52,936 bases of DNA from Rhodospirillales bacterium (GTDB taxonomy: Bacteria > Pseudomonadota > Alphaproteobacteria > Acetobacterales > Acetobacteraceae): the NCBI GenBank assembly GCA_031420655.1, contig JANONC010000363.1:1-52936 (forward strand), read 5' to 3'. Of this stretch, positions 609-52,353 are shown piece by piece (position 1 is the stretch's first letter; every line of letters starts with the position of its first letter). A model generated the notes under the pieces. It saw only the letters and a list, made by a program, of their open reading frames with translations. It had not been told where the DNA came from and searched no databases. Made by a program: the position numbers and the translations under genes.

Positions 609-612
609 TGGA

Positions 613-631
613 CCGATCCGAGACAGACGCT
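613..631 (+). repeat. probable right terminal repeat of the IS5-family fragment
   Basis: CCGATCCGAGACAGACGCT lies directly after the transposase stop. It aligns (about 13/18) with the reverse complement of 1366-1383 (CCGATTCGAAACGGCCTC), which sits in the same position after the stop of the second transposase remnant. Composition switches to AT-rich at 634. Confidence 0.45.
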
Positions 632-685
632 AAGAAATTATTAAGTGGTGTTGAGCGTGCTGTGCTCAATTTGAAAACTTGTAGC

Positions 686-1342: not shown

Positions 1343-1365
1343 CCTTAACCCTTATCTGGGATTAA

Positions 1366-1500
1366 GAGGCCGTTTCGAATCGGCTGATCAACGATCGAGC
1401 CTCCGGAGGAGAATGACGCTGGAGGCGGCGTAGAGGAAGGCCTCCACGCTCTCGATCGAGGCCTCGACGGCTTTTGCCAGCCGCCTGGTCCGGCATACTG
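1366..1500 (-). pseudogene. IS5-family element remnant (terminal repeat plus last ~35 codons of transposase)
   Basis: Minus-strand translation ending at stop 1388-1390 reads RTRRLAKAVEASIESVEAFLYAASSVILLRRLDR*. This matches the C-terminus of the ORF at 51-608 (RNRRLAKDVEATNAPTEAFLYAASAILLLRRLPR*). Similarity is lost upstream, where a stop occurs about 52 codons before the end. Confidence 0.7.
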
Positions 1501-1702
1501 GATTGCTCCGCCGAGCGGCTCGCAGGGACGGCTTTTGTTGTTCACTTTAATTCCGGCCGTCATTCGTTTGCATGACGACGCGCCGCCCCGCTCCGTGCAG
1601 TGAATAGAGGCATATCCGTGGGGTGACACATGCTTGAGCATCTGACGCGACGGGCCGTTTCATCACCGGCCCGGCCACCCAAAAACCGGGGGGCGTAGCC
1701 CT

Positions 1703-4700
1703 ATGACGCATATTCGCGCCCTGTTTGGCCGCCGCCGGGTTAATGGCTTGCGGGATAAGCTATCCAAGTGCACCGCCGTATCGGGCCTCATGCATTTTGA
1801 GGCGCTCGAACCTCGTGTGCTGCTTTCAGCCGATCTGTTGCCAGTTCATGGATCATTGGACGTACCGGGTCAGCAGGACCATTACGCCTTCTCGCTCGAC
1901 ACCACCAAAGACCTCTATTTCGACAGCCGGACCAGCACGCCCCAGTTCAACTGGACGCTGAATGGACCCGGCGGCACGGTCGTTTCCAAGTCACCCTTCA
2001 CCCAGTCTGACTCCTACGGCATTGGCGGCCCGGCCGCGCTGCATGTGCCAGCAGGGGACTATACGCTGGATGTGCAGTCGCGGGATGGCACGACTGGGGC
2101 ATATGACTTCCAGCTGCTCGACCTTGCCAATGCCAAGCCGATCACTGCTAGCACTCCCATCGACGGCACCCTGAACCCGGCCAACCGCACGGACCTGTAT
2201 CGCTTCACCGCCACGGCGGGTGACACGGTATTTTTTGACGGCCACGCGCTAGACCAGCACTCGGTCGCATGGCGCGTGATCGGCCCGGACGACAACCTTA
2301 TTTTCGGCCCGAACAATGTGGGACAGGACACGGGACCCACCAAGCTCGATAAAACCGGCACCTATACCGTGATGATCGAGGGTGCGACCGATCAGACCGG
2401 GGCGGCCCCGTACAGCTTTACCGTCCTACCCGTGACCACCACGCACGCCACCTTGGCGCTCAATCAGACTGTGGCGGGTAGCCTTGCAACACCGGGGCAT
2501 AGCGACGCGTATAGTTTTGCCGTTACCCAGTTCACGCAGGTTGTGTTCGATAGCCTGAACAGCCGGGACGACGTGTCGTGGGCGCTGACCACCACGGGCG
2601 GTTTGCCAGTGGGCGGGGGATCGTTCGGTGGTTCCGACGGCAACGGCACACCGGCGTCCGATCTGCTCCGCCTTGCCCCGGGCGGCTACACGCTCACCGT
2701 CAGTGGGTCTGGCGCGGCGACGGGGGTGTATGGCTTCCGGCTTTTGGATACCGGCACGGCGCAGGTAGCCGCCGTCAACACGGCTATAACCGGCACGCTG
2801 GGCGATGCGGGTGCAGTGGCGCAGGGCATGCACATGTCTGGCGGCGCGCCGGTGGTGGACGCCTCCTCAGACCGCGCCACCAGCTTTGGCACCGCGCAGG
2901 TCGTGGGCACTGTGCCAGTCTCAATGGCACTTCAGCCGGACGCCTTTACGGTCGAGGCATGGGTCAACCGCGCCTCCACCGCATCCGGTAACCGGGATAT
3001 CGTGCGCCAGGGCTCGGGTGCCGCCGGCTATGCGCTGCTGGTCAGTGGGGCCGGGCAGCTCACATTCCAGGCGGGTGCCGCATCCGTATCCGCCGCAGCC
3101 GCGCTGCCGCCCGGCCAATGGACCCACGTGGCTGGCACGTTCGATGGTGCGACGCTGCACTTGTTCGTGGACGGCGTGGACGTGTCCGCTGCGCCGGCTG
3201 CGGGTGCGGTCGCGTATGACACCAACGGCGTGGTGCTGGGCGGCCGCGATCCGTTCGGCAACGCGGTCTGGAGCGGCGCGCTCAACGACGTACGGATCTG
3301 GAACACGGCGCTACCTGCCGGAACGATCGCCGCCAACCGCCTGCATGAGCTGGGGGCCGCACCCGGCCTGCTTGCCAACTGGCGGCTGAACGACGCCGCT
3401 GGCCTCACGCTCACTGATGCCAGTGGGCAGGGGCATGACGCGACGCTAGTCAACCTGCCCGGCACGGCCACCGCGCTGTATGCTATCCCGCTAACGGCCG
3501 GCCTGAGCTATACTCTGGAAAACCTGTCGTACGACCGCAACGACTCCGTTCGCGTTTTCAACCCGGCCGGGTTTCAAGTGGCATACAGCCAATACGAATT
3601 CATCGCGCCCACATTTACCGCAGAGGTGTCCGGGACCTACACGGTCGCGGTTGAGGGCAACCCCGGCAATACCCGGCCCGCCAATTTCAACGTCCGCTTG
3701 AACGAGGGCTCGACCGCGGTGCAGGCGCTCGCGGTGGGCCAGACGGCAAGCGGCACGATTGGGTTGCCGGGTCAGTCGGTCTCGCTCGGCTTCACGCTCG
3801 GGTCTGCATCGCAGCTAGTGCTTGACGTGCTGGATGCAGCGGCAGGGCTGCAATGGCGCCTCATTGGCCCGTCTGGCGCGGTTGTCCCAGCCAGCGACCT
3901 GACGCACGCGGACGGCTTTAATGCGCCGCAGAATCCGGTGCTGGCCTTGGCTGCCGGGCAATACCATTTGATCGTTAACGGCACCGGTACCACGACCGGT
4001 ACGTTCCATTTGCGCCTGCTGGACGCTGCTTCGGCAACGCCGTTTGCGCTGGGCACCACCCTGTCCTGGGCTGCGGACCAGCCGGGCGGTGCAACCCTCT
4101 ATACGTTCGCGGCGTCGGCCGGGGATCAAGTGTCGTTCCATCCCGGGTCGCCCGATGACAACATCGCCTGGCAGCTGCTGGACCCTACCGGACGCACGCT
4201 GTTCGGCCCGCATTCTGTGCGGGACGAGACGGGCGTTACACTAGGAGCGTCCGGAACCTATCTGCTGCTGATCGGAGGCTATCCGAACGGGTCGGCACCA
4301 TCCGCCAGCATTGGCACCAGCCTTGACAGCCACCAGGCTCCGGCGGCACCGGCTGGCACGCCACTCGCCCTAGGTGCCGTCGCGACCGCGACACCCGGGC
4401 CGGGTGCGACCGACCGGTACGTCGTGACCGTGGCAGCCGGGCAGCGCCTATATTTCGACAGCCTTACCAACAGCGACGGTGTAACCTGGTCGTTGGCAGG
4501 GCCGCGTGGCACGGAGGTATCGTCGCGCCGGTTCGACCAGACCGATGGCAAGGATCGGAACGATAACCCGGTTCTGGTTCTGCCGCTTGCCGGCCAGTAC
4601 GAGCTGGATGTGACGACCGGCGCGTCGTTTGGCGGACCGTATGCGTTCCGGCTGACGGATATCGACGCCGGCGCGACGCCGATCACGACCGACGGGGCCG

Positions 4701-7700
4701 TAACCACCCGCACACTGACGCCCGCCAATGGCACGGACATCTATCAGTTCAACGCGACGGCCGGGCAGCTTCTGCATCTCAAGGCAACCCAGAACACGGG
4801 CTACTACAGTTCGTATGGCGTTAGCCTGCGGCTGATCGACCCGGCCGGCCAGCAGGTCGTGCAGGATAGTTCGCTCGCGTTCAACAACCTGCTCACCCTG
4901 CCGTTATCGGGCCGCTACACGCTGCTGGTGGAGGGCGATGTGGGCGAAAGCCTGGCCAGCCCGTCGACCTACACGATAGCGCTACAGACCACGATCGCGC
5001 CCACCGCGCCGCTTACGCTGGGCACCGCCGTACACGGTACCATCGCGGGCGGGGCGCAGGCGGATAGCTACACCTTCACCCTGGCCGCAGCCACGCAGCT
5101 CGTGCTCGGCAGCACGACGGATGACGGCAACGTGCAGATCGCGGCCGTGGGCAGCCAGGGCACGATCTTCACCCGCTTTTTGTCCGATGCCGAGAGGCTG
5201 CAGGGCACGTCACCCGTGTTCACGCTCGCGGCTGGCAGTTACAAAATTGTGGTCACCTCCGCCGACGGCCGGGCGACGCCGGCGTACGGTTTCGCGCTGT
5301 ACAACGTCGCAGGCGCGCAGGCGCTGACACCCGGTGCCGTAGTGACGGAGGCGTTTAATCCCGGCGGCTCGCTGCAGGCCTACACCGTCCAGGCCTCGGC
5401 CGGGCAGCAGTTGCGTGTCATTGCTGGCACGTCCGGCAGCCGGTCGTATCGCGACCAAGTCATCGTGCTGGACCCAAATGGCGTGCCGCTGGGCGGGGGG
5501 CAGGACCTATTCCAGACTAATGGCTACGCGGCGACCGTAAGCGGGACCTACACGCTGCTGATCCAGGGGACCGCGAACGCGTCTTACACGCTGGCTGCCT
5601 TCGTCGATCCGGCCCCCGCGCCGCTCGCGCTCAACGCTCGGGTGGCCGGGACGCTGCCGTCCGGCAATGACATTGCGCGATACAGCTTCACTCTGGGTAC
5701 CGCCGTGCAGCTGCTATTCGACAGCCTGACCAACAATGGCAACCTGTACTGGTCGCTAACGGGACCGCACGGCACCGTTACGTCGCACAGCTTTTATAGT
5801 TCGGACAGCTACGAATCTGGTGGCACTGCCGTGCTATCGTTGCCGGGCGGCACCTACACGCTCACCATTAGCAACGCCGCTGGCGCTTACGATTTCCGCC
5901 TGCTGGACCTCGCCACCGCCACGCTGCTGCAGCCCGGCACGCCGGTCAGCGGCACGGACGCGCCGGGTAACGCGACGAGCCTTTATGCGTTCGACGCGGC
6001 AGCTGGCGTGCCGCTCAGCGTGTCGGGCACCGCCGATGCCGGGTATGTGTCGCTGAAGATTATCGATCCATCCGGGCAAACAGTGTTCGGGCCTACAGAC
6101 TTCCAGACCCGGCTATTCACCCCCACCGCCACCGGACGTTACACGATCCTGGCAGAGGGCCGGGTGTTCGACACGGTCGCTGCGCGGTCCTTCACGCTGG
6201 GCGTGCAGGCCGTACCGAGCCAGACCATCCCGCTGACCCATCTGTCCGCGACCCCTGGGCTGATATCCGAACCCGGCCAAATCGGCACCGCGCTCGCCTT
6301 CTCCGGCCAGGACCGGGTGGAAGTGCCGGACGGCCTGGCGACCAACCCGGGTAACACCTTCACGATCGAGGCCTGGATCAACCCTGACCGTTACGCTGAC
6401 ACTTACATGCCGATTGTCTGGAAGGGCGATGGCGGGTCGTCGCGCGCTTACTCGCTCTGGCTGCAGAACGATGGCCAGGTTTTATTTTCGCTGTCCGACC
6501 CGCAGCACAGCTACGCACTGCGCAGCGATTACGGCAGCGTGAAACTGAATACCTGGACGCATATCGCCGTGGTCGCGGACGCGCAGGCCAATACGCTCAC
6601 CATCTTCCTCAATGGCGTGCAGGTCGCCCAACAGTCGTTCGGCGCGTTCACCCCGGCGGCGACCACGACGCCGTTGGTTATCGGAGCCGACCTACCTCTT
6701 GGCAGCGGCGGCGAAAGCCCCTTTCAGGGCCTGATCGACGACGTGCGCGTGTGGTCCGTAGCCCGCACGCAGGCGCAGATCGCGGCCGCGATGCAAACCG
6801 CGCTGACGGGAAACGAGCCCGGCCTCACGCTTGATCTGCCGTTAAACGACGCGACCGGGGCCACGACCCTGGCCGATGCCGGCCCGAACCACGCGACGGC
6901 CACGGTCGTGCGCCAATACGGGACGCTACCTGGTGCGATCGAAGGACGGATCGCCGTTCCGTTCGCCCGCGACAGTTACACCTTCACCTTGCCCGCCACG
7001 ACGCAGTTCGTGATCGACGGCCTGACCAGCAACACGGCCTTTACCGTGGCGATCACCGGGCCGGGCGGCTTAAACGTCACGCGGACCCTGGCCCGGTCGG
7101 ACAGCTACGAGTTTGGCGGCAACCCCGTGTTCACCGCAGGCGACGGCGCATACACTGCGACGGTCACGGCGACCGATGGCAGTGTGGGCGGGTATGTGTT
7201 CCGCCTACTGGACTTGGCCGGGGCGGTTCCAATCGCGCTCGACACGCCGGTCAGCTTCACCCTGCCGGATGGCCCGGGCACGGCCGCGTTCAGCTTTGCG
7301 GGGACGGCCGGGACGCAGTTGCTGTTCGATCGGCTGGTGAACGGCGTCGGCTCGAGCGACGTGACGGTCCGGCTGATCGACCCGCTCGGCCGGCAAGTGG
7401 CGGGGCCGAGCGCGTTCGACGTGCAGGCCAACTGGGCGACGCTGCCGCTGACGGGCACGTACATTTTGCTCGTTGAGGGGCGGTATTACGGCAAAGTCGC
7501 CAATATTCCGCTCTCCTTCGCGCTCGATCGGGCAATAACGACGGTGACGCCCACGGTCATTGGTGGCCCGAACCCGGCGGCCGGGCCGGTATGGGGCGAC
7601 GGCCGGGTGGCCGGCCAAGGTTCGGCTCCGGCGGGGCTGACGCTGACCGGCGCGGACGAGATCGTGGCACCCGCCAGCGCGGCCGGGTTCACGGCCGGCA

Positions 7701-10700
7701 GCTTTACGGTCGAGGCATGGATCAACCCTGAACGGTACACCAATTACTGGACGCCCATCACGGCACTGGTGCCGCAGACGGGCGGTTCGGAGGCGTTCCA
7801 GCTGCTGCTGCGGTATGATGGTGCGCTCTATGCCTCGATCGTGGATGCGAGCGGCCGCCAGGATATGCTGACGGCACCCGGCGTCGTGGGAACCAAGGCG
7901 TGGTCGCACGTGGCGCTGGTCGTGGACCAGGTGTTCGGCAAGCTGGAGATCTTCATCAATGGCGTGCTGACCGCTACCAGCGCCATCCGGGGCAATCCAT
8001 TGATCAACGTGGCAGGACCCTTGCTGTTCGGCGCCACCCGGGCTGCGGACACCAACGAGGGCCGCTTCGTCGGCGGCATCGACAGCATACGGGTCTGGAC
8101 CACCGCGCTTTCCGCGGCCCAGGTACTGGCAGAGGTGACTGCACCCGCGCCGTCCGGCACGGCGGGCCTGGCGATTGACCTGCTGTTTACCGAAGGATCC
8201 GGCACCACCAGCGCCAATCGCGGGGCGGCGGGCGGCCAGGCCAGCCTGGTTAGCTATAACCCAGACGGCATCACCGGCACGTTGGCGCGGCCCAATCTTC
8301 GCAACGCTTATACATTCACGACCACGACGACGACCCGCCTCGTCCTGAACGCGCTGGACGCGGCCGATGGGTTACGCTGGACGTTGACGGGCCCGACCGG
8401 TGACGTGAGCACGGCCCTGCTGCGGTATTCGGACGGATTCGACGCGGGGACCGACAGCGTCATCGTGCTGCCGCCCGGGCAGTACACCCTCACCATCAGC
8501 GGCGACGGCGACGCGCACGGCTTTTATAATTTCCGGCTGCTGGATATCGATGCGGCGGCGGTGCCGCTCACGCCGGGCACGCCGGTCGCGGGCCAGCTGC
8601 TGCAGGCGGACCGCGCGGCCGTGTACAGCTTTACGGCAACGGCCAACCAAACGCTGTTCTTCAATCCGGCGCCGACCGACGGTAGCGTAAGCTGGCGGTT
8701 GATTGACCCGTTCGGACGCAACGTTACAGGGCCGAATAGTTTCGGCCAGCAATCCGTCGTGCTGCCCTATGCCGGGACCTGGACCGTTCTGGTCGAGGCG
8801 CGGGCGTATCAGCAGGCGCAATGGACCTATGGCTTTACCGCCATCCTGACGCCCACCAACACGCTGCCGCTCACGCTCGGCGCGCGGGTGGATGGTGCCA
8901 TCACCGTGCCGTCGCAAAAGGACGTTTACACATTTACGCTGGCGCAAGCGACGAAGGCGGTGTTCGACAGCCTGTCTGCCGATAACGCGCTGAACTGGAC
9001 GCTGAGCGGCCCCACTGGCACCGTCGTCAATGGCCGCGGCTTTCAATACTCCGATGCGACCGGCATTGGCGGATCGACGGCGCTGGCGCTGGTGACCGGT
9101 TCATACACGCTGACGGTGGCGGACCAGAATGGCGGCACGGGGGCTTATGCGTTCCGGCTGCTGGATCTGGCGGCCGGGACCGCCATCGCTGCCGACACGG
9201 CCGTCACTGGCACGCTTGGCGATAACGGGCGGGACACAAACGTCTATCTATTGACCGCCACCGCAAAGCAGCGCGTGTCGTTCGACGCAACCGGGCTAGG
9301 CGGGGCGGCTTGGCGCTTGCTGGACCCTTACGGCAATCTCGTATTCGGGCCGGTTACGACCCTCAGCTCCGGCCCGCTGACGCTCATTGCCGGGAGCTAC
9401 GCCCTGCTGATCGAGGGCCCTGTGAACGCGGCGGCCCCGGCTAATTTTTCCTTTACGGTGGACAGCCTTGCGCAACAAACCGCGGGCGGCCAGACGGCAC
9501 AGGATTTCGACACGCCTGGCCTACTGCCATACACGCTCGCAAACTTCAGTGGCCCGCCTGCGGCAGTAACCGCAGGCACTTCCGGACAGGCGCTGTCGCT
9601 TACCAGCGGGGCTGGCGGCAACGTCGATAACGGCATCTACTTCCCCGCCACGACGGACAGCCCGCTCGATCACGTAACGGTCGACCTGGATTTTACGATC
9701 TCAGCGGGTACCGGCCAAACATCGAGCCTCGTCGTGGCGCTCCTGGATACCGCGACATGGGGCAAGAGCGGCACCGGGCCGGACTTGTTCACCAATGCTG
9801 GCTTGGCCAACTCGATCGGTATCGCGATCGAGGCCAATAATAACTACAGCGGCGACGGGTCGGCCAACCATATCGCGGTGCGCGACGACAGCGGGCTGAT
9901 CCAGCAGGTGTTGCTCAGTCCCACCGTGCTCGCTCTCGCAAGCGGCGCCGTTCTGCACGCGACCATCACGGTGCAGGCAACGGATGGCGGTGCGCTGGTC
10001 TCGGTGTCGCTCACGCCGCCGGGCGGGCAGGCAGTCGCGGCGGTAAGCGGCCTGTTCGTAGCCGGGTATCATCTGGCTTCGAGCCGGGTCGCGATCGGTG
10101 GACAGAGCTCTTATGGCAGCAACGCGCTGACGATCGACAATATAAAGATTGCGGCCGTTGCCGGTGCCGACGATGCAGCGGCCATTACGCTGGGACAGAC
10201 CGTGTCCGGCGCGATCCTGGTGGCGGGTGCGACGGAGCGGTACGCGTTCGATCTGGGCAGCCCCACCCAGCTCTATTTCGACAATCTGGTGCGCGACACA
10301 GGTTACTTGCATTACAAAGTAACCGGCCCGGCCGGCGTGTTGGCGGACGGCGACCTTTTCTCGGCCGACTCGGGCTATCGCGGTGGTAATCCGCTGTTGG
10401 CGGCCCCGGCCGGGCACTATGTCGTGACGCTCTCCGAGCGGTACGGGGCCACGGCGCCGTTCTCGTTCCGGGTGCTGGATGTGGCCGCTGCGACGCCGGT
10501 CACCATTGGCGGCCCGGCGGCACCACCGGTTACGACCACGCTGTCGCCCGGCTCGGCCACGGCGCTATTCTCGTTCACCGGCGCCGCCAAACAGATACTC
10601 TATTTCAACAATGCCGGCGCGGGCTCCTACACCTTCGTCCGCATCGTCGATCCGTCCGGCAACGTCGTGACCGGGCCCAACGGCCTGGATAATCTCGGCC

Positions 10701-37700: not shown

Positions 37701-40700
37701 TAGACGTGCTGGCGCTTGATACAGGCACTGGCATTTCACTTACCGCCCTTGGAACGCCGGTGCACGGCACGGCCAGCATCGTGGGCGGCAAGATCAGCTA
37801 CACCGCAAATGCCGACTACGCCGGGGTAGACCAGCTCAGCTACACCATCACCGACTCGCTCGGGCAGCCCGCTACCTCCATCGCCGCGGTCACGGTCGTG
37901 CCGCCCAGCGATGCCGTGCCGGTCAAACCTACCGTCTTCTCCCCGGCGCTGGTGGTGGCGCAGAACGGGCCTACGACCGCCATCGGCATCGCCTTGCCGG
38001 CTGACCCGGCTTATCCAGCCACGAGCCTGGTCGTCACCATCGGCACCCTGCCCAGCACGGGCGGCGTGAGCCTGCCGGACGGCACGGTCATCACCGCCGG
38101 GCAGGTGCTGACGGCACAGCAACTTGCGGCGTTGCAGTTCACCCCGGCCCCGGACACCGCGGGCGTCAGCTCCACCCTGACCTACACGGTGGCGGACCCG
38201 GCTGGGCGCACCGCCACCGGCACCGCCACGCTCGTGATCGGGCCTGCGCAGGGCCACCCCGTTGCTGGCACCGTGCAGGTCACAGTCGCCATCGCCCCGG
38301 TCCCGCTGGCGATCGCGCCGCCGTTAGACGGCGACTACGCCACCAGCACGCTGCTGATAACCCTGACCGGCTTGCCGACCAGCGGTACGGTGTCGCTGGC
38401 AGACGGAACCGCTGTTGACGTAAGCCAGGTGATGACCGCGGCGCAGCTGGCCGGCCTCGTGTTCAGCGCGACACCCGGCGCGTACGGCTCCAGCTCTGCC
38501 CTTACCTACACCGTGCGGGACCCGGCCGGCGCCCTGGCGGCCGGGGTGGTTGGTATAACGGTACTGGGTGCCACCACGGCACCACCAGTCCTGACGCTGG
38601 CAAGCGGTGCTAGCCAGGCCATTCTGGACGAGGCGACCGCAGTGTTGTCCGGTACCGCAACACCCGGCGCGCTCATTACGCTGTCCGGCGGCCTCGGCTC
38701 CGCCCAGGCAGGGGCAGATGGGTCGTTCATCATCGCCATCCCGCTATCCGATGTGCCGCTGACGGGCTCGCGGCTGTCGATCACCGCGACCGCCGCGTTG
38801 GCCGGGTTCACGCTGTCGCCACCCAGCGCCGCGGTATCGCTGCTCGTGCTCCCGCCACCCGGCGCGGATGGCGTCGTGCTAACGGATGTCAGTTCCATAG
38901 ATATCGCGGACGCACTCCATGCCGGCTACCGCCTGCAGTTCACGGCGGTAACCGAGGCGCTTAACCTCGTTGATGGCGTGCTGAGCGTCGGCGTCGATAC
39001 GCATGAAGCCTTCCTGCAGCGCTTGTATGAGGGCCTGCTGGGCCGGTCATATGAGACGGGCGGCATGGAGGCCTGGGTCGCGGCGCTAGCCTCTGGGCGC
39101 TCACTGGAAGACGTGGCCCAGGGCTTCCTCAACTCGGCCGAATACCAAACCCGTCCGCAGCCCCGGACCGAGCCGGAGTTCATAACCAGCCTGTACCAGG
39201 GCTTCCTCGGGCGGGATCCGGTTGCGCCGGAGCTGTCGTATTGGCTGGAGGTGGGCAACCGTGGCCTCAGCCATGCCCAGATCGTCGCCTCATTCGGTAC
39301 GCAGCCAGAGGCCAAGATCCACTTGGCCGCGACCACGGCCCGCGTTTTCGCCCGCAGCGAGACCGCCACCGCCGTGCACGACATTTACAAAACCGCGCTG
39401 GGGCGAGAGGCGGAGCTGGGTGGCTTGGCCACGTGGACCGGTGTCGCCGGGCAGGGTGGCCTGCAAGCGGTCGCGGCTCTCTTCCTGCTGGAGCCAGAAG
39501 CGGCCGGCCTGCATGCGCGGCAGAGTAACGCGGATTACGTTCGTTCCCTGTACCTCGCTGGCCTCGGACGGGCGGCTAGCGACGCGGAGGTCTCGTATGG
39601 TGCCGGGCAGCTCGATGCCGGACTGTCGCGGGGCGCATTCCTACAGGGTGTCGCTTTGTCGCCGGAAGCGAGGGCGCACCTAACCTCGGATGATTTCAAC
39701 TCGCTGGCGCCAATCTTTGCGCTGCCTGTGGCTGCGGTCGCAGCCACTACTGTGCCGTCCATCACGCAGCCTGCCGCACGCCCCGCGCTGTTGGCGACGG
39801 CCCCGGCTACCGCGCTGGTAAACACGCAGGCTGTCGTCTCCCTTTCGGGCGGCGGGCGTGTCATGGGATGGACGGTGCTGTGGGGTGACGGCAGCGCGGC
39901 CATGACGGTCGCGGGTGACGTGGCGGAGGCGCAGCACAGCTACACCGCACCCGGCACATACGCGGTGCAGGCGGTCGGACGCGCGGCAGACGGCGTGTTC
40001 GCGGCCAACCCGCTCGCCATCGCGGCCACTGGCACGACATTTGTCCCTGCAGGCGTCGTGGCGGAACAGACCGGCTTTAATGCCCGGTTTAACCAGGCGC
40101 TGACCATCAGCAGCCTCACCTTGCTGGCGGATGCGTCCGGTACCGCACCGTCCGTTCTTGTCACTGGGCCAGGCGGCGGCACGATCGACGGTTCCGTCGT
40201 GGCGGACGCGGATGGCGCGGGCTTCCACTTCGTGGCTGCGGCCGGCGCGCTAGCACCCGGTGCCTACAGCGTCGTGGTGCGCAGCGCGGTGCTGGACGCG
40301 CGGGGCGAGGCATTGGACGGTGCGGCCGTGGGCGCGGCAGGCAATGACGAGCGGTTCAGCGTCACTGTCCCGGCCGGGGATGCGGTGACGATGCCATCGT
40401 TCATGCGGGGACCGGGCCAGGCCGTCAGTGTACCGGTTGCGGACAGCGCGCTGCCGGTATCGTTCACCAGCGGGGGGGAGGCGACGCGCCTGGTGTTCAC
40501 CACCACCGCCGATCCGGCTTTACTGGCCATCACCGGGGCCACGGCGGGCGCGGGATTGCCGGCGGGCAGCACCGTCGCCTTCGACACACAGCTCGTCGGC
40601 GGCCAAGCCCGCGCCACGATCACCGTCACGTCACCCACCCCTATTCCCGCTGGGACGGTGCCGTTGGTTCTGCTGCAAGCGGCGGTGCCGGCCAGTGCGC

Positions 40701-41488: not shown

Positions 41489-41500
41489 CCCCCACCCGCC

Positions 41501-41507
41501 AAAGGAG
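41501..41507 (+). promoter_or_regulatory. Shine-Dalgarno for the DUF3467-like gene
   Basis: AAAGGAG lies 6 nt upstream of ATG 41514 and 12 nt after the giant-gene stop. Confidence 0.7.
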
Positions 41508-41513
41508 CCAAAA

Positions 41514-41789
41514 ATGAGCGATGACCCTGCCGCCGCGCAGCAGAAGCTGCGGTTTGACACGACCGGTATCAAAAGCAGCTACTGCAACGTCTGCAACGCG
41601 ACCAGCACCCGCGAAGAGGTTGTGCTGAATTTCGGGCTTAATAAGACGTGGGACGTGGCCGGTGCCGACCTGCAAGTGCAGTTGGAACACCGCATCATTT
41701 TAAGTCCATTTGCCGCCAAACGCCTGCAGCAACTGCTGACACAACTGATGACGGAGCATGAGGCGCGGTACGGACAACTAAACCAGTAA
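41514..41789 (+). CDS. DUF3467-like small protein (91 aa)
   Basis: Internal ATG of ORF 41397..41789, with a strong SD. The sequence MSDDPAAAQQKLRFDTTGIKSSYCNVCNATSTREEVVLNFGLN...HRIILSPFAAKRLQQLLTQLMTEHEARYG resembles the DUF3467 family pattern (Y.N......s..E.vL.Fg, then a C-terminal helix). The assignment is from memory. Confidence 0.75.
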   Translation: MSDDPAAAQQKLRFDTTGIKSSYCNVCNATSTREEVVLNFGLNKTWDVAGADLQVQLEHRIILSPFAAKRLQQLLTQLMTEHEARYGQLNQ

Positions 41790-41802
41790 CGAGGGCAGCA
41801 CC

Positions 41803-43638
41803 ATGGATAACACGAGGCTGGAAACCGGCATCAAAACCGCAGATCTGTGGGCGGAGTTTGCGGTTGCTGATGGGATGGACGCGCTGTGCCGGTCCTGGTT
41901 ATCGCTTTATTGCCGGAACCTCACGCACCTGTCCCGGGCGATGCTCGTTGTTTCCCGCCCCGGCGGACCGTTCCAGCCGCTGGCCGTGTGGCCCTCGTCA
42001 CTGACGGACCTGACCGGGTTACAGGGTGTAGTAGAACGCTGCATCCGCACTGGCGAGCCGGAAGTGGAACCGCAGGAGACCGGCGCGGGCACGCACGTGG
42101 CGTACCCATTCCTGGCAGACGGTCAGGTCGTGGCCGGCGCTGTCGTGCTGGATTTGGGCCCGGGCGCGGCCACCGGCCTGGCGCAGCTCTTGCGCGACCT
42201 GCACTGGGGCATGGGCTGGCTGGAAGCGCAGTCCGTCCGTGACCGTATGGCCCGCGAGCACCTACGCACCGCGAACCTATCCGCCGCTTTGGATCTAGTC
42301 GCGCTGGCCAACGAGCATGACCGCGCGGATGGCATGGCGATCGCGATTGCCAACGAACTGGCAGCCCGGCTCGGCGCGTCCCGCGTGGCGATCGGGCTGA
42401 GTGGGCCCAAGGGTGCTCGGCTACTCGCGCTGTCGCACACGGCCTGGTTCAAGCGCAACACTGCCCTGGCCCTTAGCCTGTGTTCGGCGATGGACGAGGC
42501 CATCGACCAGCGCGCCCCGGTCCGGCTACCGCCCGCCGCCGGGGAGCCGGTCCGCATTCAAGTGGCGCATGAGGCATTGCGAGGGTCGCTTTCGGGCGAT
42601 GGCGCGATCCTAACCGTGCCGATGCTGACGGAGCATGGGCCGGTGGGGGCCATCACCGTGCTGCATCCCGGCACACTGACCGTGGCGCAAGCGCGGCTGG
42701 TGGAGGCGGTTGCAGCCCTGCTCGGCCCCGGGGTGCACGCCAAGCAACGGGCGCGCCGCTGGCTATCCGGACGGTTGGTGGACGGAGCCGCGGGTGCCGC
42801 CGCCGCCCTCGCTGGCCCGCGGCATTTGGCGTGGAAATTCGTTGGTATTTCGGCGCTGGTGTCCGTCACGGCGTCGCTGATCGTACCCATGCCGTTCCGG
42901 GTTTCGGCCAAAGCGGTGCTGGAAGGGGAGATACAGCGCGTCGTGGCGGCCCCGTTCGAGGGCTTTATTGCCACCGCCCCGGCCCATGCGGGTGACGTGG
43001 TGGCGGAAGGCACCGTTCTCGCCACGTTGGACGACAATGACCTTCGACTAGACGCCGTAAAGTGGCAATCCGAGCATGACCGGCTGACGCTCAAGCTACG
43101 GGAGGCGTTAGCCAAGCATGACCCGGCCAGCGCCGGGCAGCTGGACGCGCAGTTGCGCCAGACGCAGGCGCAGGCCCGGCTGACGGCGGCCAAGCTCGCG
43201 CGGTCGGTCATTACCGCGCCGATGGCGGGTGTGGTCGTGTCGGGCGATCTATCGCACTCGATTGGCGCGCCGGTCGAAACGGGTAAGGTGCTGTTTGAGG
43301 TCGCACCACTCGACCGCTACCGCGTCGTGGTGCGGGTGGATGAACGCGACCTGCGGTTCGTGCAGCCCGGGCAGGGCGGCACGATGCTGCTGTATGGCCT
43401 GACCAGCGCGGCGCTGCCGTTCGTGGTGCAGCGCGTCACCCCGGTCGCGCAGGTCGATGGCGGGCGCAATACCTTTCGGATCGAAGGCGCATTGGCGGAC
43501 GGCGCGGCGCTCGATAGCCTGCGGCCCGGTATGGAGGGGATCGGTAAGATTGAAATCGGCGAGCGGTCCGTGGCCGCCGTGTGGACGCGCAGCCTGGTGG
43601 ACTGGGTGCGCAACACCGCCTGGGCCTGGACCCCCTGA
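41803..43638 (+). CDS. GAF-GAF-TM-HlyD family periplasmic adaptor (membrane fusion protein)
   Basis: 611-aa ORF starting 13 nt after the previous stop. There are two GAF-like segments (about aa 10-150 and 165-325) and one hydrophobic helix (WKFVGISALVSVTASLIVPMPF). The C-terminal HlyD pattern reads VAAPFEGFIATAPAHAGDVVAEGTVLATLDD...coiled coil...ITAPMAGVVVS...GKVLFEVAPLDRYRVVVRVDERDL. Confidence 0.85.
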   Translation: MDNTRLETGIKTADLWAEFAVADGMDALCRSWLSLYCRNLTHLSRAMLVVSRPGGPFQPLAVWPSSLTDLTGLQGVVERCIRTGEPEVEPQETGAGTHVAYPFLADGQVVAGAVVLDLGPGAATGLAQLLRDLHWGMGWLEAQSVRDRMAREHLRTANLSAALDLVALANEHDRADGMAIAIANELAARLGASRVAIGLSGPKGARLLALSHTAWFKRNTALALSLCSAMDEAIDQRAPVRLPPAAGEPVRIQVAHEALRGSLSGDGAILTVPMLTEHGPVGAITVLHPGTLTVAQARLVEAVAALLGPGVHAKQRARRWLSGRLVDGAAGAAAALAGPRHLAWKFVGISALVSVTASLIVPMPFRVSAKAVLEGEIQRVVAAPFEGFIATAPAHAGDVVAEGTVLATLDDNDLRLDAVKWQSEHDRLTLKLREALAKHDPASAGQLDAQLRQTQAQARLTAAKLARSVITAPMAGVVVSGDLSHSIGAPVETGKVLFEVAPLDRYRVVVRVDERDLRFVQPGQGGTMLLYGLTSAALPFVVQRVTPVAQVDGGRNTFRIEGALADGAALDSLRPGMEGIGKIEIGERSVAAVWTRSLVDWVRNTAWAWTP

Positions 43639-43640
43639 TC

Positions 43641-45791
43641 GTGACGGAAACGTTCTTCGCCCAGAACTGGTACCGGGTCGCAGCGCTGCGGCCGCGCTTG
43701 GCTGCGCATGTTGTGGTCGAGCGGCACCGCTATGGCGGGCTACCCTGGTACGTGTTGCTGGACCGGCTATCGGGCCGGGTGCACCGCATGTCGCCTGCCT
43801 CGTTCCTGTTCGCCGTGCGCCTCGATGGCGTCCGTACGGTGGACGAGGTGTGGCAACAAACGGCGGCCGAACTGGACGATGACGCGCCGGGGCAACCGGC
43901 CGTGCTGCAGATACTCATGCAGTTACACGCAGCCGATTTGCTGTCCGGTGATATGCCGCCCGATGCGGCGGAACTGCTGTCGCGGCGCGACCGGATGGGC
44001 CGGCAGCTGCTGACGCGCAACCTGCGCTCGCCCATGTCGATACAGGTGCCGCTGTTTGACCCCGACCGGTTTCTGAGCGGGACGCTGCGTGTGGTGCAGC
44101 CGCTGCTGGGCCCGGTGGGCGGCGTGCTGTGGCTGCTGCTGGTCGTGGCTGGGGCGGTGACGGCGGGACAGCATTGGGACGAGCTGACGGGCAATCTGCT
44201 GGACCGGCTGCTGGGCACTCAGGGCCTGCTGGCTATGGCGCTCTGCTACCCGGTCCTGAAAATATTGCATGAACTCGGCCATGGCTGGATGGCCAAGCGC
44301 TTCGGCTGCGAAGTGCGGGAGATGGGCGTCATGCTGCTCGTGATGATCCCGGTGCCGTATGTGGACGCCAGCGCGTCGGCGGCGCTACGCAATAAATGGC
44401 AGCGGGCCGCGGTGGCGTTCGCAGGCATCGCGGTCGAACTCGGCCTGGCCGCCGCCGCAACGCTGGTGTGGGCCGCGGCCGAGCCGGGCTTGCTGCGCGC
44501 GGTGGCATTCAACGTCATGGTCATCGGCAGTCTCTCGACCCTCGTGGTCAACGGCAATCCGTTGCTGCGCTTTGATGGCTATTACGTGCTGTCAGACGTG
44601 CTGGAGGTTCCAAACCTTGCCCAGCGCGGCAGCCAGTTCTGGGGCTATGTGCTGAACCGCTTTGTCCTAGGTGTGCCGAACCTGCGGCCTTCTTCCGCAA
44701 CCATGCGGGAGCGGTTCATATTTGCGCTCTATACCCCGGCGGCCCTGGCCTATCGCCTATCGGTTTCCGCCGGGATCGCACTCTATGTCGCCACACATTA
44801 CTTTATTTTGGGCGTGGCGCTGGCGGTGGTCATGCTAGCGACGACTGTCGCGTGGCCCGTGCTGCGGACAATAGGGCGGATCGTGGCGTCGCCGCTTTAT
44901 GCACGCTGCCGTGCCCGCGCGACTGGGCTGACGTTTGCCGGGATCGCCGCGGTGGTGCTGCCGCTAGCGCTGGTGCCGGCCCCCCTGCACAGTACCGGGG
45001 ACGGCGTCGTGTGGCTGCCGCGGGAGGCGTTCGTGCGCGCTGGGGCGGACGGGTTCGTGCAGTCCGTCACCGCAGCAGGCGCGCAAGTGCCGGCGGGTGC
45101 CCTGCTGGTCGCGTTGGCCTATCCCTTGGCGGACGCGCGGCTGGAGGTCGAGCGGGCGCGGGTGGACGAGCTGCGCGCGAAGTACGAGACGGAGTGGGTG
45201 ACGGATCGGATCGCCGCTGCAGTTACAGGGTTCGAGCTGTCGCAGCAGGAGGCCGTCTTGAACCGCGAGCAGCAGCGGCAAGCGCGCATGACGGTCACGG
45301 CTGGCACGAGCGGCGCATTCAGTCCCATCCGGCCCACCGGCGATCTGGAAGGGCGATTCGTTAAAGAGGGAGAGGTGCTGGGCTACGTCGTCCCACCCGG
45401 CGGCGAGCTGGTCCGGGTACTCGTGCCGCAGGTGGATATCGCACTGATGCAGGAGCGGCTCGTGCGGGTCAGCATCTTGTTGCCCGATAGCCGGACCACC
45501 GTCGCCTCCAGCGTTCTGCGCGCCGTGCCCGGCGGCGATAGCGACCTGCCGAGCGAGGCGCTGGCGGCCAGCAATGGCGGCTCCATCGTGACCGACCCGC
45601 GGGATACAAAGACGATGCGCGCCTTTGAGCGGCATTTCCAGTTCGACTTGTCCCTCCCCGCGACAGCCGCGGTGCGCGCCGCCGGACTTGGGTCGAAGGT
45701 GTTGGTCCGCTTCGATTATGCGTGGGAGCCGGTGGCAAGCATGGTGTATCGCCGAGTGCGCCAGGGATTGCTTGGCCGTTTTAACACGTGA
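43641..45791 (+). CDS. PqqD-like / S2P (peptidase M50-like) / HlyD-like fusion membrane protein
   Basis: ORF 43581..45791. GTG 43641 lies 2 nt after the upstream stop, and TETFFAQNWYRVAALRPRL looks like the family N-terminus (ATG 43581 is the alternative). The PqqD-like segment is YVLLDRLSGRVHRMSPASFLFAVRLDGVRTVDEVWQQTAAEL. HELGH is at 44268-44282. The second S2P motif is NGNPLLRFDGYYVLSD (about 44549-44590). There are several hydrophobic helices. The C-terminus carries a lipoyl/coiled-coil/barrel HlyD-like part (ARLEVERARVDELRAKYE...RFVKEGEVLGYVVP). Confidence 0.85.
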   Translation: MTETFFAQNWYRVAALRPRLAAHVVVERHRYGGLPWYVLLDRLSGRVHRMSPASFLFAVRLDGVRTVDEVWQQTAAELDDDAPGQPAVLQILMQLHAADLLSGDMPPDAAELLSRRDRMGRQLLTRNLRSPMSIQVPLFDPDRFLSGTLRVVQPLLGPVGGVLWLLLVVAGAVTAGQHWDELTGNLLDRLLGTQGLLAMALCYPVLKILHELGHGWMAKRFGCEVREMGVMLLVMIPVPYVDASASAALRNKWQRAAVAFAGIAVELGLAAAATLVWAAAEPGLLRAVAFNVMVIGSLSTLVVNGNPLLRFDGYYVLSDVLEVPNLAQRGSQFWGYVLNRFVLGVPNLRPSSATMRERFIFALYTPAALAYRLSVSAGIALYVATHYFILGVALAVVMLATTVAWPVLRTIGRIVASPLYARCRARATGLTFAGIAAVVLPLALVPAPLHSTGDGVVWLPREAFVRAGADGFVQSVTAAGAQVPAGALLVALAYPLADARLEVERARVDELRAKYETEWVTDRIAAAVTGFELSQQEAVLNREQQRQARMTVTAGTSGAFSPIRPTGDLEGRFVKEGEVLGYVVPPGGELVRVLVPQVDIALMQERLVRVSILLPDSRTTVASSVLRAVPGGDSDLPSEALAASNGGSIVTDPRDTKTMRAFERHFQFDLSLPATAAVRAAGLGSKVLVRFDYAWEPVASMVYRRVRQGLLGRFNT

Positions 45792-45809
45792 GCGCGATCC
45801 GCTCCTTGC

Positions 45810-47792
45810 CTACTCTGTACCGGTGAAGCCCATTCCGCGGTCGGTTTCCTCGTCCTGCTGCATTTGCTGGCGGCGCTGCTGGGCGTTCATGCGGCTTGCG
45901 GTGCGCTGCGCATGATGGCGCAACAGGGCCAGGCCGCCGGGCAGCTTTCCGGCGGAAGCAGCAAGGCGGGGTGCGAAGCGGTGGAACAGTTCGTCATCCC
46001 GGGCCACGATGCTTTCGCACGATCCCGGGTCGCCCTGGCGTCCGGCGCGGCCGAACAGCTGGCGGTCGATGCGGCCGCTATCGTGATAACCGGTCAGGAT
46101 GACATGCAGCCCGCCCGCGGCCGCCACGCCGGGGCCGAGCGTAATATCCGTCCCGCGGCCAGCCATGTTGGTCGCGACCGTGATCCGGCCTGCCTGACCG
46201 GCGGCGGCCACGATAGTCGCCTCATTCACGTCTTGCCGGGCGTTCAGTACGACATGCGGTAGCCCACGCTCTGCCAGCACTGCGGAGAGCGACTCCGATG
46301 CCTCGACCGACTGGGTACCGGCTAGCACGGGTTGACCTGCGCACGAGACCTGCGCCACCCGCGCTGCGACCGCCTGCCATTTCGCCGCAGCATCGGGCAG
46401 CAACATCCCTCCCAGATTGCGGCGCTGCACCGGGCGATGGGTGGGCATGTGGACGGTACGCAGCCCATAGACGCCCTGCAACTCCCCCGCGACCTCCCGC
46501 GCCGTGCCAGACATGCCGCTCAGATGCAGATAGCGGTTGAAAAAGCGCTGGTAGGTGATGCGGGCCAGGGTCACACGCCGCCCAGTGAGGGTCACGCCCT
46601 CTTTCGCCTCCACCATCTGGTGCAATCCTTCTTCCCAGCTGCGGTCCGGCATGACACGCCCGGTATATTCATCGACGATCTGAACCGACCCATCGGCGAC
46701 GATGTAGTGCCGGTCGCGGGCGAACAGATGCAGCGCGGTCAGCGCCTGGGCGATCAGCGTTTCCCGCGCAGGGCGGATGCGGAACAGGCCGAGCATATTC
46801 TGGCCGAGCAGCGCTACCTTCTCCTGCCCCCGGGTGGTCAACCGCACGACGTCCGCCGCGGCGTCTATCAGGAAGTCGTCGCCCAGCGCCAGCCGCCGCC
46901 CGATCTCGAGCGCCCGTCCGGCAATCTCCTCCGCGCCTTGGTCGGGCCGGTCGGCGGAGATGATGAGCGGCGTGCGAGCCTCGTCGATCAGCACGCTGTC
47001 GGCCTCATCGACGATCGCCGCATGCAGGCCGCGCAGGACCAGCCCGCCTGCGCCGGACGTACCGACAAGCGACGCAACGGCCTGCCGCGCCTGGCCCTTG
47101 CCGCCGGTCGTCGCGATTCGGTCCTTCAGGTAGTCGAACACCAGTTCCTTGTTGGAAACATAGACGATATCGGCGGCGTAAGCCTGGTGGCGCAACGCCG
47201 GCTCATCTCCTTCGACGACAACGCCCACCGTCAATCCCAGCGCCTCACAGACAGGACGCAACCGCTCCGCATCGCGGCTGGCGAGGTAGTCGTTTACCGT
47301 CACGACGTGGACGGGCTTGCCGGCCAGGGCGAGGTAGATGGCGGGCAGCAGCGCGGTGATGGTCTTGCCCTCACCGGTCGCCATTTCGACAATGCGGCGG
47401 CTGGTGAGGGCACGTCCGCCGAGCAGCTGGACCGGGTAGTAGCGCAGGCCGAGGTGGCGCTCGACGGCGGTTGCCACCAGGCCGAACACCTGCGTGCGCC
47501 GGGCGCCGGGGTCTTTCAGCAGCGCCGTGCGCAGCGCCGCCGCACTGGCCAGCAGCGCGGGTCCGCTGTGGCCGCTGACAGACGCAGCCTCCCGCGCAAC
47601 GTCAAGGGCAAATTCGGCTGCGCCTGTCAGCCGTCCGGTAAGCGCCGCCCGCCACTGGCCGACCATGGTCGCTACGCGGCGGTCGAACGCATTGCCCGGT
47701 CGTATAAAGCGCTCGGCATAGGGGGCCACGGCATAGCGACGCATGATATTTTCTTGCCACGCCGCAGGACGAAGGTCTAGCAGATACGTCAT
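45810..47792 (-). CDS. truncated SecA-like ATPase paralog (DEAD motor plus preprotein cross-linking region only)
   Basis: YYPVQLLGGRALTSRRIVEMATGEGKTITA (Walker A codons at 47361-47384), HVVTVNDYLASRD, IVDEADSVLIDEARTPLIIS, VATNMAGRGTDI, GRAGRQGDPGS. The protein ends about 60 aa after the last motif. An alternative start is ATG 47744 (MRRYAVAPYAER). Confidence 0.85.
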   Translation of the reverse strand: MTYLLDLRPAAWQENIMRRYAVAPYAERFIRPGNAFDRRVATMVGQWRAALTGRLTGAAEFALDVAREAASVSGHSGPALLASAAALRTALLKDPGARRTQVFGLVATAVERHLGLRYYPVQLLGGRALTSRRIVEMATGEGKTITALLPAIYLALAGKPVHVVTVNDYLASRDAERLRPVCEALGLTVGVVVEGDEPALRHQAYAADIVYVSNKELVFDYLKDRIATTGGKGQARQAVASLVGTSGAGGLVLRGLHAAIVDEADSVLIDEARTPLIISADRPDQGAEEIAGRALEIGRRLALGDDFLIDAAADVVRLTTRGQEKVALLGQNMLGLFRIRPARETLIAQALTALHLFARDRHYIVADGSVQIVDEYTGRVMPDRSWEEGLHQMVEAKEGVTLTGRRVTLARITYQRFFNRYLHLSGMSGTAREVAGELQGVYGLRTVHMPTHRPVQRRNLGGMLLPDAAAKWQAVAARVAQVSCAGQPVLAGTQSVEASESLSAVLAERGLPHVVLNARQDVNEATIVAAAGQAGRITVATNMAGRGTDITLGPGVAAAGGLHVILTGYHDSGRIDRQLFGRAGRQGDPGSCESIVARDDELFHRFAPRLAASAGKLPGGLALLRHHAQRTASRMNAQQRRQQMQQDEETDRGMGFTGTE

Positions 47793-48588
47793 GATCTACC
47801 GCAGTCTTGGTATAATTGTACTGCTCGCTGGGCCTGCTCATGCGGGGGAGTACGCCTGCTTGATCGAGCCGAAGCAGGTGCTGAAGCTCGCTGCACCCGT
47901 GCAGGGCGTAGTGGCCGCCGTAGAGGTTGATCGCGGGGACCGGGTACGGAAGGGCCAGGTGCTGGCGCGGCTGGATTCCGATGTGGAGGAGGCTAACGCG
48001 CTGATCGCCCAAGTGCGTGCGGCCAATGACACCGCGATCCGGTCCGGGCGCGCCCGGCTCGATTTCCTGCGCCGCAAACAGTCGCGCAACGATCAGCTCC
48101 GAACGACCGACGCGGTTAGTTTTGCCCAAGCGGACGAAGCAGCGTCTGACGCGCGCGTGGCCGAAGCGCAGTTGCGGGAGGCGGAGCTGAACGTAGCGCA
48201 GGCGCGTCTGGAGGCGAAGCGGTCCGAGGGATTACTGCAGCAGCGCCGGGTGGTAAGCCCGATCGATGGCGTGGTCACGGAGCGCTCGCTGGGGCCGGGC
48301 GAGTTTCGCAACGACCAAGCGACCATTCTGACGATTGCCGAGATTAATCCACTACGGGTTGAAACCTTTTTGCCGATCGCGGTGTACGGCCAGGTCAAGG
48401 TTGGGGACAAAGCGGTGGTGGTGCCCGAAGCGCCAGTGGGCGGCAGCTACGCCGCGACGGTCACGGTCGTGAATGCCGTGTTCGACGCGGCCAGCGGCAC
48501 GATCGGGGTGCGGCTGGAGCTACCAAACCCCGACCTGCTGTTGCCAGCGGGTATACATTGTCGGGTCCGTTTTTCGGCGGTGCCCTGA
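47791..48588 (+). CDS. small periplasmic adaptor (HlyD/RND-MFP family) with signal peptide
   Basis: MIYRSLGIIVLLAGPAHA/GEY signal. Then KLAAPVQGVVAAVEVDRGDRVRKGQVLARLD, a coiled coil, VVSPIDGVVTERSLGPGE and PLRVETFLP. The longest ORF starts at 47743. Confidence 0.8.
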   Translation: MIYRSLGIIVLLAGPAHAGEYACLIEPKQVLKLAAPVQGVVAAVEVDRGDRVRKGQVLARLDSDVEEANALIAQVRAANDTAIRSGRARLDFLRRKQSRNDQLRTTDAVSFAQADEAASDARVAEAQLREAELNVAQARLEAKRSEGLLQQRRVVSPIDGVVTERSLGPGEFRNDQATILTIAEINPLRVETFLPIAVYGQVKVGDKAVVVPEAPVGGSYAATVTVVNAVFDAASGTIGVRLELPNPDLLLPAGIHCRVRFSAVP

Positions 48589-52194: not shown

Positions 52195-52198
52195 GGTT

Positions 52199-52204
52199 CC
52201 TCCC
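52199..52204 (-). promoter_or_regulatory. Shine-Dalgarno of the hydrolase gene
   Basis: The minus-strand GGGAGG lies 4 nt upstream of ATG (52192-52194). Confidence 0.7.
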
Positions 52205-52353
52205 GGCGCCTCATCCGTTCGGGCGCATGGCCCAGTTTGCGCATGCGGACCGGGAGCAAGGCAACAGGTCGGGTGAACGCCGGTCCCAGACCGTGTTTCC
52301 AGGTCGGTGCCTACCGGACTTACGCCCCGCCAAGTTCCTTCAGCGCCAGGCCG

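Follow-up and report, generated by a model that had tools for sequence, protein, structure and literature searches.

Contig JANONC010000363.1 of a Rhodospirillales bacterium, considered here over its full length of 52,936 nucleotides (nt; approximately 66% GC) and called the window, carries a giant gene for a LEPR-XLL protein of 13,261 amino acids (aa). Immediately behind it lies a cassette of genes for a DUF3467 protein, a GAF-adaptor, a PqqD-like/Peptidase_M50/adaptor fusion, a truncated SecA-like ATPase and a small periplasmic adaptor (Table 1). Comparison with related loci establishes a conserved functional linkage of this cassette with giant LEPR-XLL proteins, for which it is a candidate export and processing apparatus.

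Behind the stop codon of the giant gene, a gap of 25 nt containing the motif AAAGGAG leads to the DUF3467 gene, and gaps of 13 and 2 nt precede the GAF-adaptor and fusion genes, respectively. The fusion frame is open from GTG 43581, and the alignment of 21 family members begins at the position of the GTG given in Table 1. The SecA-like open reading frame (ORF) converges on the fusion gene from the minus strand, 18 nt beyond the stop of the latter. The coordinates, gaps, AAAGGAG motif and domain assignments of the original prediction, which was made from the sequence by eye, were all reproduced from the ORFs, their junctions and their Pfam and NCBIfam matches. Its description of the small adaptor gene as diverging from the SecA-like start holds for the direction and needs amendment for the start itself: the longest ORFs of the two genes overlap by 50 nt, and both starts are ambiguous. 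In a contig 99-100% identical to the window, the gene caller placed them at the equivalents of 47744 (644 aa) and 47791 (265 aa), leaving 46 nt between them; from the latter start the small adaptor begins MIYRSLGIIVLLAGPAHA. Also in line with the earlier account, Pfam and NCBIfam scans of the window found no ATP-binding cassette (ABC) transporter gene and no TolC-type gene.

Table 1. Genes of the LEPR-XLL locus, with the leader-coding part of the giant gene (positions in the window)
Feature	Position	Strand	Remarks
Giant LEPR-XLL gene	1703..41488	+	13,261 aa; TGA stop 41486-41488
Leader-coding part of giant gene	1703..1849	+	aa 1-49
DUF3467 gene	41514..41789	+	91 aa; ATG 41514
GAF-adaptor gene	41803..43638	+	611 aa; ATG 41803; stop 43636-43638
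PqqD-like/Peptidase_M50/adaptor fusion gene	43641..45791	+	716 aa; GTG 43641
Truncated SecA-like ATPase gene	45810..47792	-	660 aa, or 644 aa from ATG 47744
Small periplasmic adaptor gene	47743..48588	+	likely start ATG 47791 (265 aa)

The giant protein has a mass of 1,353 kDa and a pI of 4.5. An open frame of 39.8 kb in which many domains are recognized goes far beyond what chance would give; the body of the protein includes Laminin_G_3, CARDB, He_PIG, Big_9, Cadherin_5, DUF4214 and PKD domains and an RHS/YD segment. The last of these, with matches to DUF6531 and RHS/YD repeats amid Ig-like repeats (aa ~8190-8420, window ~26260-26950), is a short Rhs-like segment within an adhesin-type protein. 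The sole strongly hydrophobic segment of the body, at aa 9055-9073 (~28865-28921), consists of AAIAFMTLPLLGIAAISPI running into SLAVVALGATQMVIPII and may be a membrane-inserting or anchoring element. The C-terminal 700 aa (39386-41485) hold two cohesin domains (PF00963, 46.6 bits), which flank a dockerin-like D-x-D-G-x segment, and homologous regions occur in the cassette-adjoining giants of five related loci (L001, L009, L014, L066 and L083; tblastn, 31-37% identity). This region may serve as a conserved module for anchoring or self-assembly. RTX repeats, reported absent in the original prediction, were indeed not found in the giant, in which a single GGxGxD is observed against one expected by chance.

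Residues 1-49 of the giant form a leader composed of a basic stretch followed by FEALEPRVLLSAD; the NCBIfam model NF012209 (LEPR-8K) matches aa 31-49 at 35.7 bits (cutoff 17), and a hydrophobic N-terminal signal peptide was not found. The single Cys among the 13,261 residues is residue 23 (window 1769-1771); as it falls within the presumed leader, the mature giant would be fully Cys-free. The prediction of LEPRxLL N-termini beside the cassette was borne out by the loci recovered with the M50 fusion, since a LEPR-type leader is present in all nine in which the N-terminus of the large neighbour is visible (L016, L021, L045, L046, L051, L072, L080, L081 and L084), with no match of the leader pattern on reversed translations as a control. 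These locus N-termini, together with 41 N-terminal fragments found by homology, give the consensus phi-R-F-E-x-L-E-P-R-V-L-L-S-A-D-x-x-P, in which E-P-R is invariant, lies at a median residue of 54 (range 30-74) and is preceded by a net-basic stretch. None of the LEPR-type leaders examined has a hydrophobic core or signal peptide. The leader is proposed to be a recognition and cleavage signal. In L080 (15436-16584), a LEPR-type leader stands ahead of a DUF4347 domain (E 1.6e-56) in an ORF of 383 aa that is followed by further large frames, representing either a smaller class of substrate or a giant gene broken by assembly errors.

Homologues of the fusion, of about 716 aa, number more than 4,462, and, when one genome per GTDB species was scanned, a relative of the fusion turned up in at least 537 species-level genomes. 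Among the matches listed, carriers include Alpha-, Beta- and Gammaproteobacteria, Nitrospira, Myxococcota, Planctomycetota, Methylomirabilia and Polarisedimenticolia; no lineage known as single-membraned occurs among the named loci. Neighbourhoods were counted at the 80 best-scoring fusion loci (36-61% identity), with flanks of 10 kb that are too short for the far end of 40-kb genes. A GAF-adaptor gene lies directly upstream of the fusion in 72 of 73 evaluable loci, and a SecA-like gene directly downstream in 66 of 67, with 65 on the same strand; among these 67, the inverted SecA-like gene is peculiar to the clade of the window. The 43 fully evaluable loci hold the small adaptor in 34 cases and DUF3467, detected by tblastn at 1e-5, in 25. 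The core cassette is composed of the GAF-adaptor, the fusion and the truncated SecA, and DUF3467 and the small adaptor are frequent components that are not universal. The conserved five-gene cassette first envisaged is accordingly retained as a three-gene core.

Long frames in GC-rich DNA may be spurious; frames outside the core were counted from 1500 aa upwards, and gene calls agree with the result. By this measure a giant frame is present in 35 of the 43 loci. Five giants were gene-called, at 12,228 aa (Pseudooceanicola batsensis HTCC2597), 14,929, 13,330, 8,905 (Roseovarius dicentrarchi) and 12,208 aa, each ending just before DUF3467. The predicted adjacency of a giant to the cassette is thereby upheld, and the opposite pattern, a cassette usually lacking a LEPR-XLL or giant neighbour, was not encountered. 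The converse search, with the first 330 aa of the giant, gave fragments of 183-578 aa only, and because only N-terminal fragments were recovered the direction from LEPR protein to cassette was checkable in four contexts. Cassette genes are present in two; the other two comprise the 5' side of fragmented giants, with the 3' end beyond reach. At one of the former (P0124), a divergent operon encoding an outer-membrane protein of the TolC-type OEP family (470 aa), a GAF-adaptor (634 aa), a fusion (722 aa), a SecA-like protein (662 aa) and a small adaptor (275 aa) adjoins a LEPR giant of at least 8,352 aa, and at the second a small adaptor gene is found immediately upstream.

Several other gene families recur in these neighbourhoods. 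TolC-type OEP genes (PF02321) stand beside the small adaptor in L018, L030 and L081, assigned by Pfam, and in L047, assigned by sequence clustering only. A member of the SapC family (PF07277, E 1e-74) occurs in 13 loci (L031, at 12218-13069, L041, L057 and 10 more), often inserted behind the fusion gene and ahead of that for the SecA-like protein; the name SapC was first given in the S-layer type I secretion operon of Campylobacter fetus. A 2OG-Fe(II) oxygenase gene was found in four loci by ORF clustering of the 80. No recurrent neighbour family of the 80 loci contains an ABC_membrane exporter, and the recurrent ABC ORFs are importer-type or consist of the nucleotide-binding domain (NBD) only, without ABC_membrane. 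SecY-like, SecY2 or Asp-type families, and enzymes that modify ribosomally synthesized and post-translationally modified peptides (RiPPs), are likewise not recurrent in the 80 loci. In the Rhodobacteraceae loci L001 (7486-8097) and L089 (7508-8077), an extra gene of about 200 aa lies between DUF3467 and the GAF-adaptor; in L001 its product ends in a VPLPA-CTERM sorting signal scoring 24.0 bits, against a cutoff of 25.35.

The fusion protein has Pfam matches to PqqD (weak), Peptidase_M50 (PF02163; 35.4 against a cutoff of 27.2) and HlyD_3. The motifs HELGH and NPLLRFDG are invariant, with H210, E211, H214 and N304..D312-G313 present in 21 of 21 aligned sequences, and at least five transmembrane (TM) helices are predicted between aa 155 and 445, a combination characteristic of site-2 proteases (S2P). 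Across the family, Pfam finds M50 in 21 of 21 members, PqqD in 20 (E ≤ 0.01, best E 8e-8) and HlyD_3 in 19. In the AlphaFold2 (AF2) model (mean predicted local distance difference test, pLDDT, 82.5), residues 17-97 form strands followed by three helices; a helical membrane domain comes next, then a C-terminal domain with an alpha-hairpin of 27+26 residues. A Foldseek search matched this last domain to MexA, MacA, AcrA and EmrA at about 1e-8, and the C-terminus thus models as a genuine MexA/MacA-type adaptor. The best NCBIfam model for the fusion is NF041824, the intramembrane leader protease of daptide RiPPs, which scores 145.6 bits against a cutoff of 300 and aligns over its whole length to aa 38-424 of the ORF opened at GTG 43581.

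In canonical SecA, the wing domain, the two-helix finger and the C-terminal tail are used at SecY. The SecA-like protein of the cassette has the Pfam domains SecA_DEAD, SecA_PP_bind and P-loop_SecA and aligns solely to residues 64-551 of Bacillus subtilis SecA, that is to NBD1, the preprotein cross-linking domain and NBD2. The family core (residues 101-600; 63 members) is highly conserved and includes GEGKT, VDEADSVLIDEARTPLIIS and GRAGRQGDPG; Walker A, DEAD and motif VI are conserved. About 100 N-terminal aa are family-specific. At the other end, a short conserved tail resembling the first turns of the scaffold helix is followed by the stop (family median 677 aa), so that the scaffold is reduced to a stub and the wing domain, two-helix finger and C-terminal tail are missing. 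By its sequence, the protein keeps the ATPase motor and preprotein clamp of SecA and is devoid of the SecY-engaging parts. Of all SecA and SecA2 NCBIfam models, those for SecA2 score high, yet every score is below its cutoff. The protein is thus a naturally occurring counterpart of N68, the motor fragment of SecA (Karamanou et al., 1999).

The GAF-adaptor combines a GAF domain with an adaptor domain of the HlyD/RND type (HlyD_3/HlyD_D23). Its one predicted TM helix, at aa 343-361, would place the GAF region in the cytoplasm and the adaptor domain in the periplasm. The small adaptor matches RND_mfp at 129.9 bits (cutoff 94.9) and has an N-terminal signal peptide. HlyD_3 and HlyD_D23 matches across three window proteins identify periplasmic adaptors of the membrane fusion protein (MFP)/HlyD class.

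DUF3467 (PF11950) was recognized in the 91-aa ORF at 63.5 bits (cutoff 25, E 1.9e-17), and no membrane segment is predicted in the protein. The family is conserved over its whole length; its Cys residues, two in the clade of the window, are variable. In the related loci, 19 of 33 DUF3467 copies come immediately after a frame of 1000 aa or more. Nearly all of 1,180 family clusters are stand-alone proteins of 100-150 aa, with a few tandem duplications, and no informative fused domain was found among them. Two copies per locus are present in L043 (5503-5820, 7666-7983) and L062 (5456-5818, 6835-7215), and tandem-duplicated proteins of 217-252 aa are known (P0362, P0385, P0386 and P0423); such duplications hint that the functional unit is a dimer. 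Kinship with the chaperone SecB found no support (0.3% probability by hhalign against an approximate E. coli SecB sequence), and the family profile matched no PDB sequence at E ≤ 10.

The cassette is probably a dedicated apparatus for export and leader processing of the adjacent LEPR-XLL megaprotein, laid out as a tripartite system of adaptors and outer-membrane channel. Gene content and folds suggest that the inner-membrane engine, elsewhere an ABC or C39 component, is here made up of the SecA-like motor and the leader-binding S2P. More tentatively, and with slightly less than even confidence, the cassette may represent a new type of secretion system of double-membrane bacteria, in which the scaffold-less SecA, the protease-adaptor fusion and the GAF-adaptor are the engine of a TolC-coupled conduit that exports LEPR-XLL proteins N-terminus first, possibly co-translationally, and removes the leader. 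In the dedicated apparatus, as proposed, the PqqD-like domain of the fusion would bind, on the cytoplasmic side, the basic stretch and FExLEPRVLLSAD of the leader. The truncated SecA would dock at the cytoplasmic face, perhaps on the GAF domains, and feed the unfolded, Cys-free chain N-terminus first, and the intramembrane M50 metalloprotease would cut off the leader, with the cut expected close to LLSA|D. The GAF-adaptor, the fusion and the small soluble adaptor would each contribute an adaptor domain to the bridge across the periplasm to a TolC-type channel, which is encoded in the cassette in some genomes and presumably elsewhere in the genome of the window. DUF3467 would serve as a small accessory in the cytoplasm, perhaps in a chaperone or adaptor role. 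An N-terminal signal would permit export to start before a chain of 13,000 residues was completed.

A number of observations weigh against an export apparatus of this kind. No channel-forming inner-membrane component was identified among the cassette proteins, and we know of no M50 protease that acts as a translocon. A TolC-type gene lies within the cassette in five related loci only and is absent from the window. The PqqD match (PF05402) in the window fusion, at 21.3 bits, is below the Pfam cutoff of 23.4. The neighbourhood counts apply only to the subfamily sampled, since the 80 loci were chosen as the nearest relatives of the query; within it, 8 of the 43 loci lack any frame reaching 1500 aa in the 10-kb flanks, two of these eight containing fragments of LEPR-type genes. 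L087 (ENA ctg135684, 10001-12154 with its flanks) carries the 13,330-aa giant, DUF3467 and the M50 fusion with no adjacent SecA-like gene. The gene after its fusion encodes a short-chain dehydrogenase, which makes this locus the one clear exception to SecA adjacency, and a 622-aa gene with no Pfam match on record occupies the GAF-adaptor position. The AF2 model of DUF3467, built from 34 sequences, is poor (pLDDT 56), which renders its Foldseek matches (best E 0.95) meaningless. Finally, given its GAF domains, the cassette could be mainly regulatory.

This last point is taken furthest in the rival that survives best, though we consider it unlikely. Here the cassette would be a processing or regulatory module only. 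It would cut or free the giant, or govern how long it stays on the surface through a ligand sensed by the GAF domains, by analogy with the control of LapA by LapD/LapG, and an export system would be located elsewhere. Small-molecule sensing is the typical task of GAF domains, a RiPP leader protease is what the M50 fusion most resembles, and both the want of an evident channel-forming inner-membrane protein and the window's lack of a TolC-type gene would fit. However, proteolysis alone hardly explains three adaptor domains alongside a translocation-type ATPase with a preprotein clamp. TolC-type genes are embedded in the cassette at the five loci just mentioned. The substrates, moreover, have neither a Sec signal peptide nor RTX-type repeats, and no ABC exporter is linked to the cassette in the 80 loci.

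Ranked below it, and distinctly improbable, is a two-step route. In it the giant would be handed by the SecA-like ATPase to the housekeeping SecYEG channel, in the manner of SecA2 in Gram-positives and mycobacteria; the adaptors and TolC would serve the outer-membrane step only, and the M50 protein would act as leader peptidase. The strong similarity to SecA, including the preprotein cross-linking domain, and the high if sub-cutoff SecA2 scores speak for this route. Against it, the protein stops after a scaffold-helix stub, without the wing, two-helix finger and C-terminal tail of canonical SecA, the leader has no hydrophobic core, and SecY2/Asp-type genes are not recurrent. That the cassette instead matures or exports a small ribosomal peptide, such as DUF3467 or an unannotated one, with the giant nearby as a genomic-island coincidence, is very improbable: a PqqD-like RiPP recognition element (RRE) with M50 and HlyD does recall the clusters of RiPPs and bacteriocins, NCBIfam gives a daptide protease as the top match, and DUF3467 is small with two Cys in the window's clade, but modification enzymes do not recur, DUF3467 is conserved throughout rather than at its Cys residues and was detected by tblastn in only 25 of 43 loci, and the adjacency to giants and the LEPR leader are far too regular for coincidence.

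Export of the megaprotein by a dedicated apparatus, the reading preferred here, can be set beside several known systems. With the type I secretion systems (T1SS) of giant adhesins (LapA/LapBCE, SiiE/SiiCDF, MpIBP) the cassette shares substrates that are surface proteins of very large size, acidic, rich in repeats and almost devoid of Cys, periplasmic adaptors (MFPs or periplasmic adaptor proteins) of MexA/MacA-like fold and, in some cassettes, TolC-family genes. It differs in the absence of an ABC exporter from the window and the 80 loci and of RTX repeats, in a conserved signal that is N-terminal rather than C-terminal, and in having three adaptor species, not one; the giant may still have a cryptic C-terminal signal. 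A reading as a conventional T1SS was rejected for want of an ABC exporter and RTX repeats. In bacteriocin-type T1SS and peptidase-containing ABC transporters (CvaB-CvaA-TolC, PCAT1), as proposed for the cassette, an N-terminal leader is recognized, and presumably cut, by a protease borne on the machine, and an adaptor and TolC finish the conduit; there, however, the protease is a C39 cysteine protease rather than an intramembrane M50 with a PqqD-like domain, the motor is ABC rather than SecA-like, the leader is double-glycine rather than LEPRxLL, and the cargo is 1,000 times smaller. The RRE-M50 leader peptidases of RiPPs (daptide NF041824; YydH/LiaK) resemble the fusion in HExxH, a PqqD-like N-terminal domain and a full-model alignment of about 400 aa. 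They are unlike it in that the fusion scores below cutoff, has an extra C-terminal adaptor domain, lacks RiPP-modifying enzymes nearby and has a megadalton presumed substrate; a reading as a RiPP cluster was rejected because the modifying enzymes are lacking.

Accessory SecA2 systems (SecA2/SecY2 for serine-rich adhesins, and those of mycobacteria and Listeria) likewise tie a second SecA paralogue genetically to very large surface proteins. Here, in contrast, the paralogue is truncated after NBD2, the hosts are double-membraned, SecY2/Asp genes are absent and the substrates have no signal peptides. The analogy with Gram-positive SecA2 drawn in the original prediction is therefore weak, since the SecA-like protein lacks the SecY-engaging parts and its substrates lack a signal peptide. 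Classification as a conventional T1SS or as an accessory Sec system is excluded. Full-text literature searches found no description of the cassette, the nearest being that of giant Omnitrophota and Actinobacteria proteins that contain SecA DEAD and preprotein-binding domains without scaffold and wing, domains that were proposed to help export the very giant in which they lie (West-Roberts et al., 2023, bioRxiv 10.1101/2023.11.21.568195). In those giants the SecA domain is fused in cis, next to TM regions, whereas the window encodes a separate 660-aa protein in a conserved operon with adaptors and an S2P fusion. With the truncated motor a separate protein of a defined operon, the export idea becomes testable.

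To our knowledge, the only systems understood to carry 1-MDa proteins through two membranes are type I systems that are driven by an ABC transporter and use C-terminal signals, and a different gene set is here tied to proteins of 9,000-15,000 aa in hundreds of species. If the proposed mechanism is correct, it would constitute a new secretion route, LEPRxLL would be a new class of N-terminal secretion signal and a SecA motor would be able to work away from SecY. It would also extend RiPP-style leader recognition to megaproteins and give a function to DUF3467 and to the LEPR-XLL tag, which genome annotation marks without explanation. Cultured carriers include strains of Bradyrhizobium, Methylobacterium, Mesorhizobium, Massilia, Roseibium/Labrenzia, Marinobacterium and Pseudooceanicola, which makes the question directly testable. 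Among them are Massilia sp. Leaf139 (L081), Bradyrhizobium sp. DOA9 (L031), Methylobacterium aquaticum DSM 16371 (L078), Labrenzia alba CECT 7551 (L049), Marinobacterium mangrovicola DSM 27697 (L036) and Pseudooceanicola batsensis HTCC2597 (L001).

The window has further genes outside the giant gene and the cassette. A fragment of an IS5-family DDE transposase lies at 51-608 (+) and matches the C-terminal half only of NF033580 at 92 bits, below cutoff; the stretch 1-2000 that holds it has 55.5% GC, just upstream of the giant gene at 66% GC. Two ORFs downstream of the fragment, at 605-1342 (+) and 1345-1641 (-), have no family match. Beyond the cassette are three genes, at 50819-51082 (-), 52045-52758 (+) and 51187-52194 (-), a group made up of a DksA/TraR-family C4 zinc-finger gene (NF008243, 125.9 bits, cutoff 96), a weak recombinase zinc-ribbon remnant and a dienelactone-hydrolase-like gene with a signal peptide. 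As these three downstream genes resemble mobile-element remnants, the locus may sit in a genomic island.

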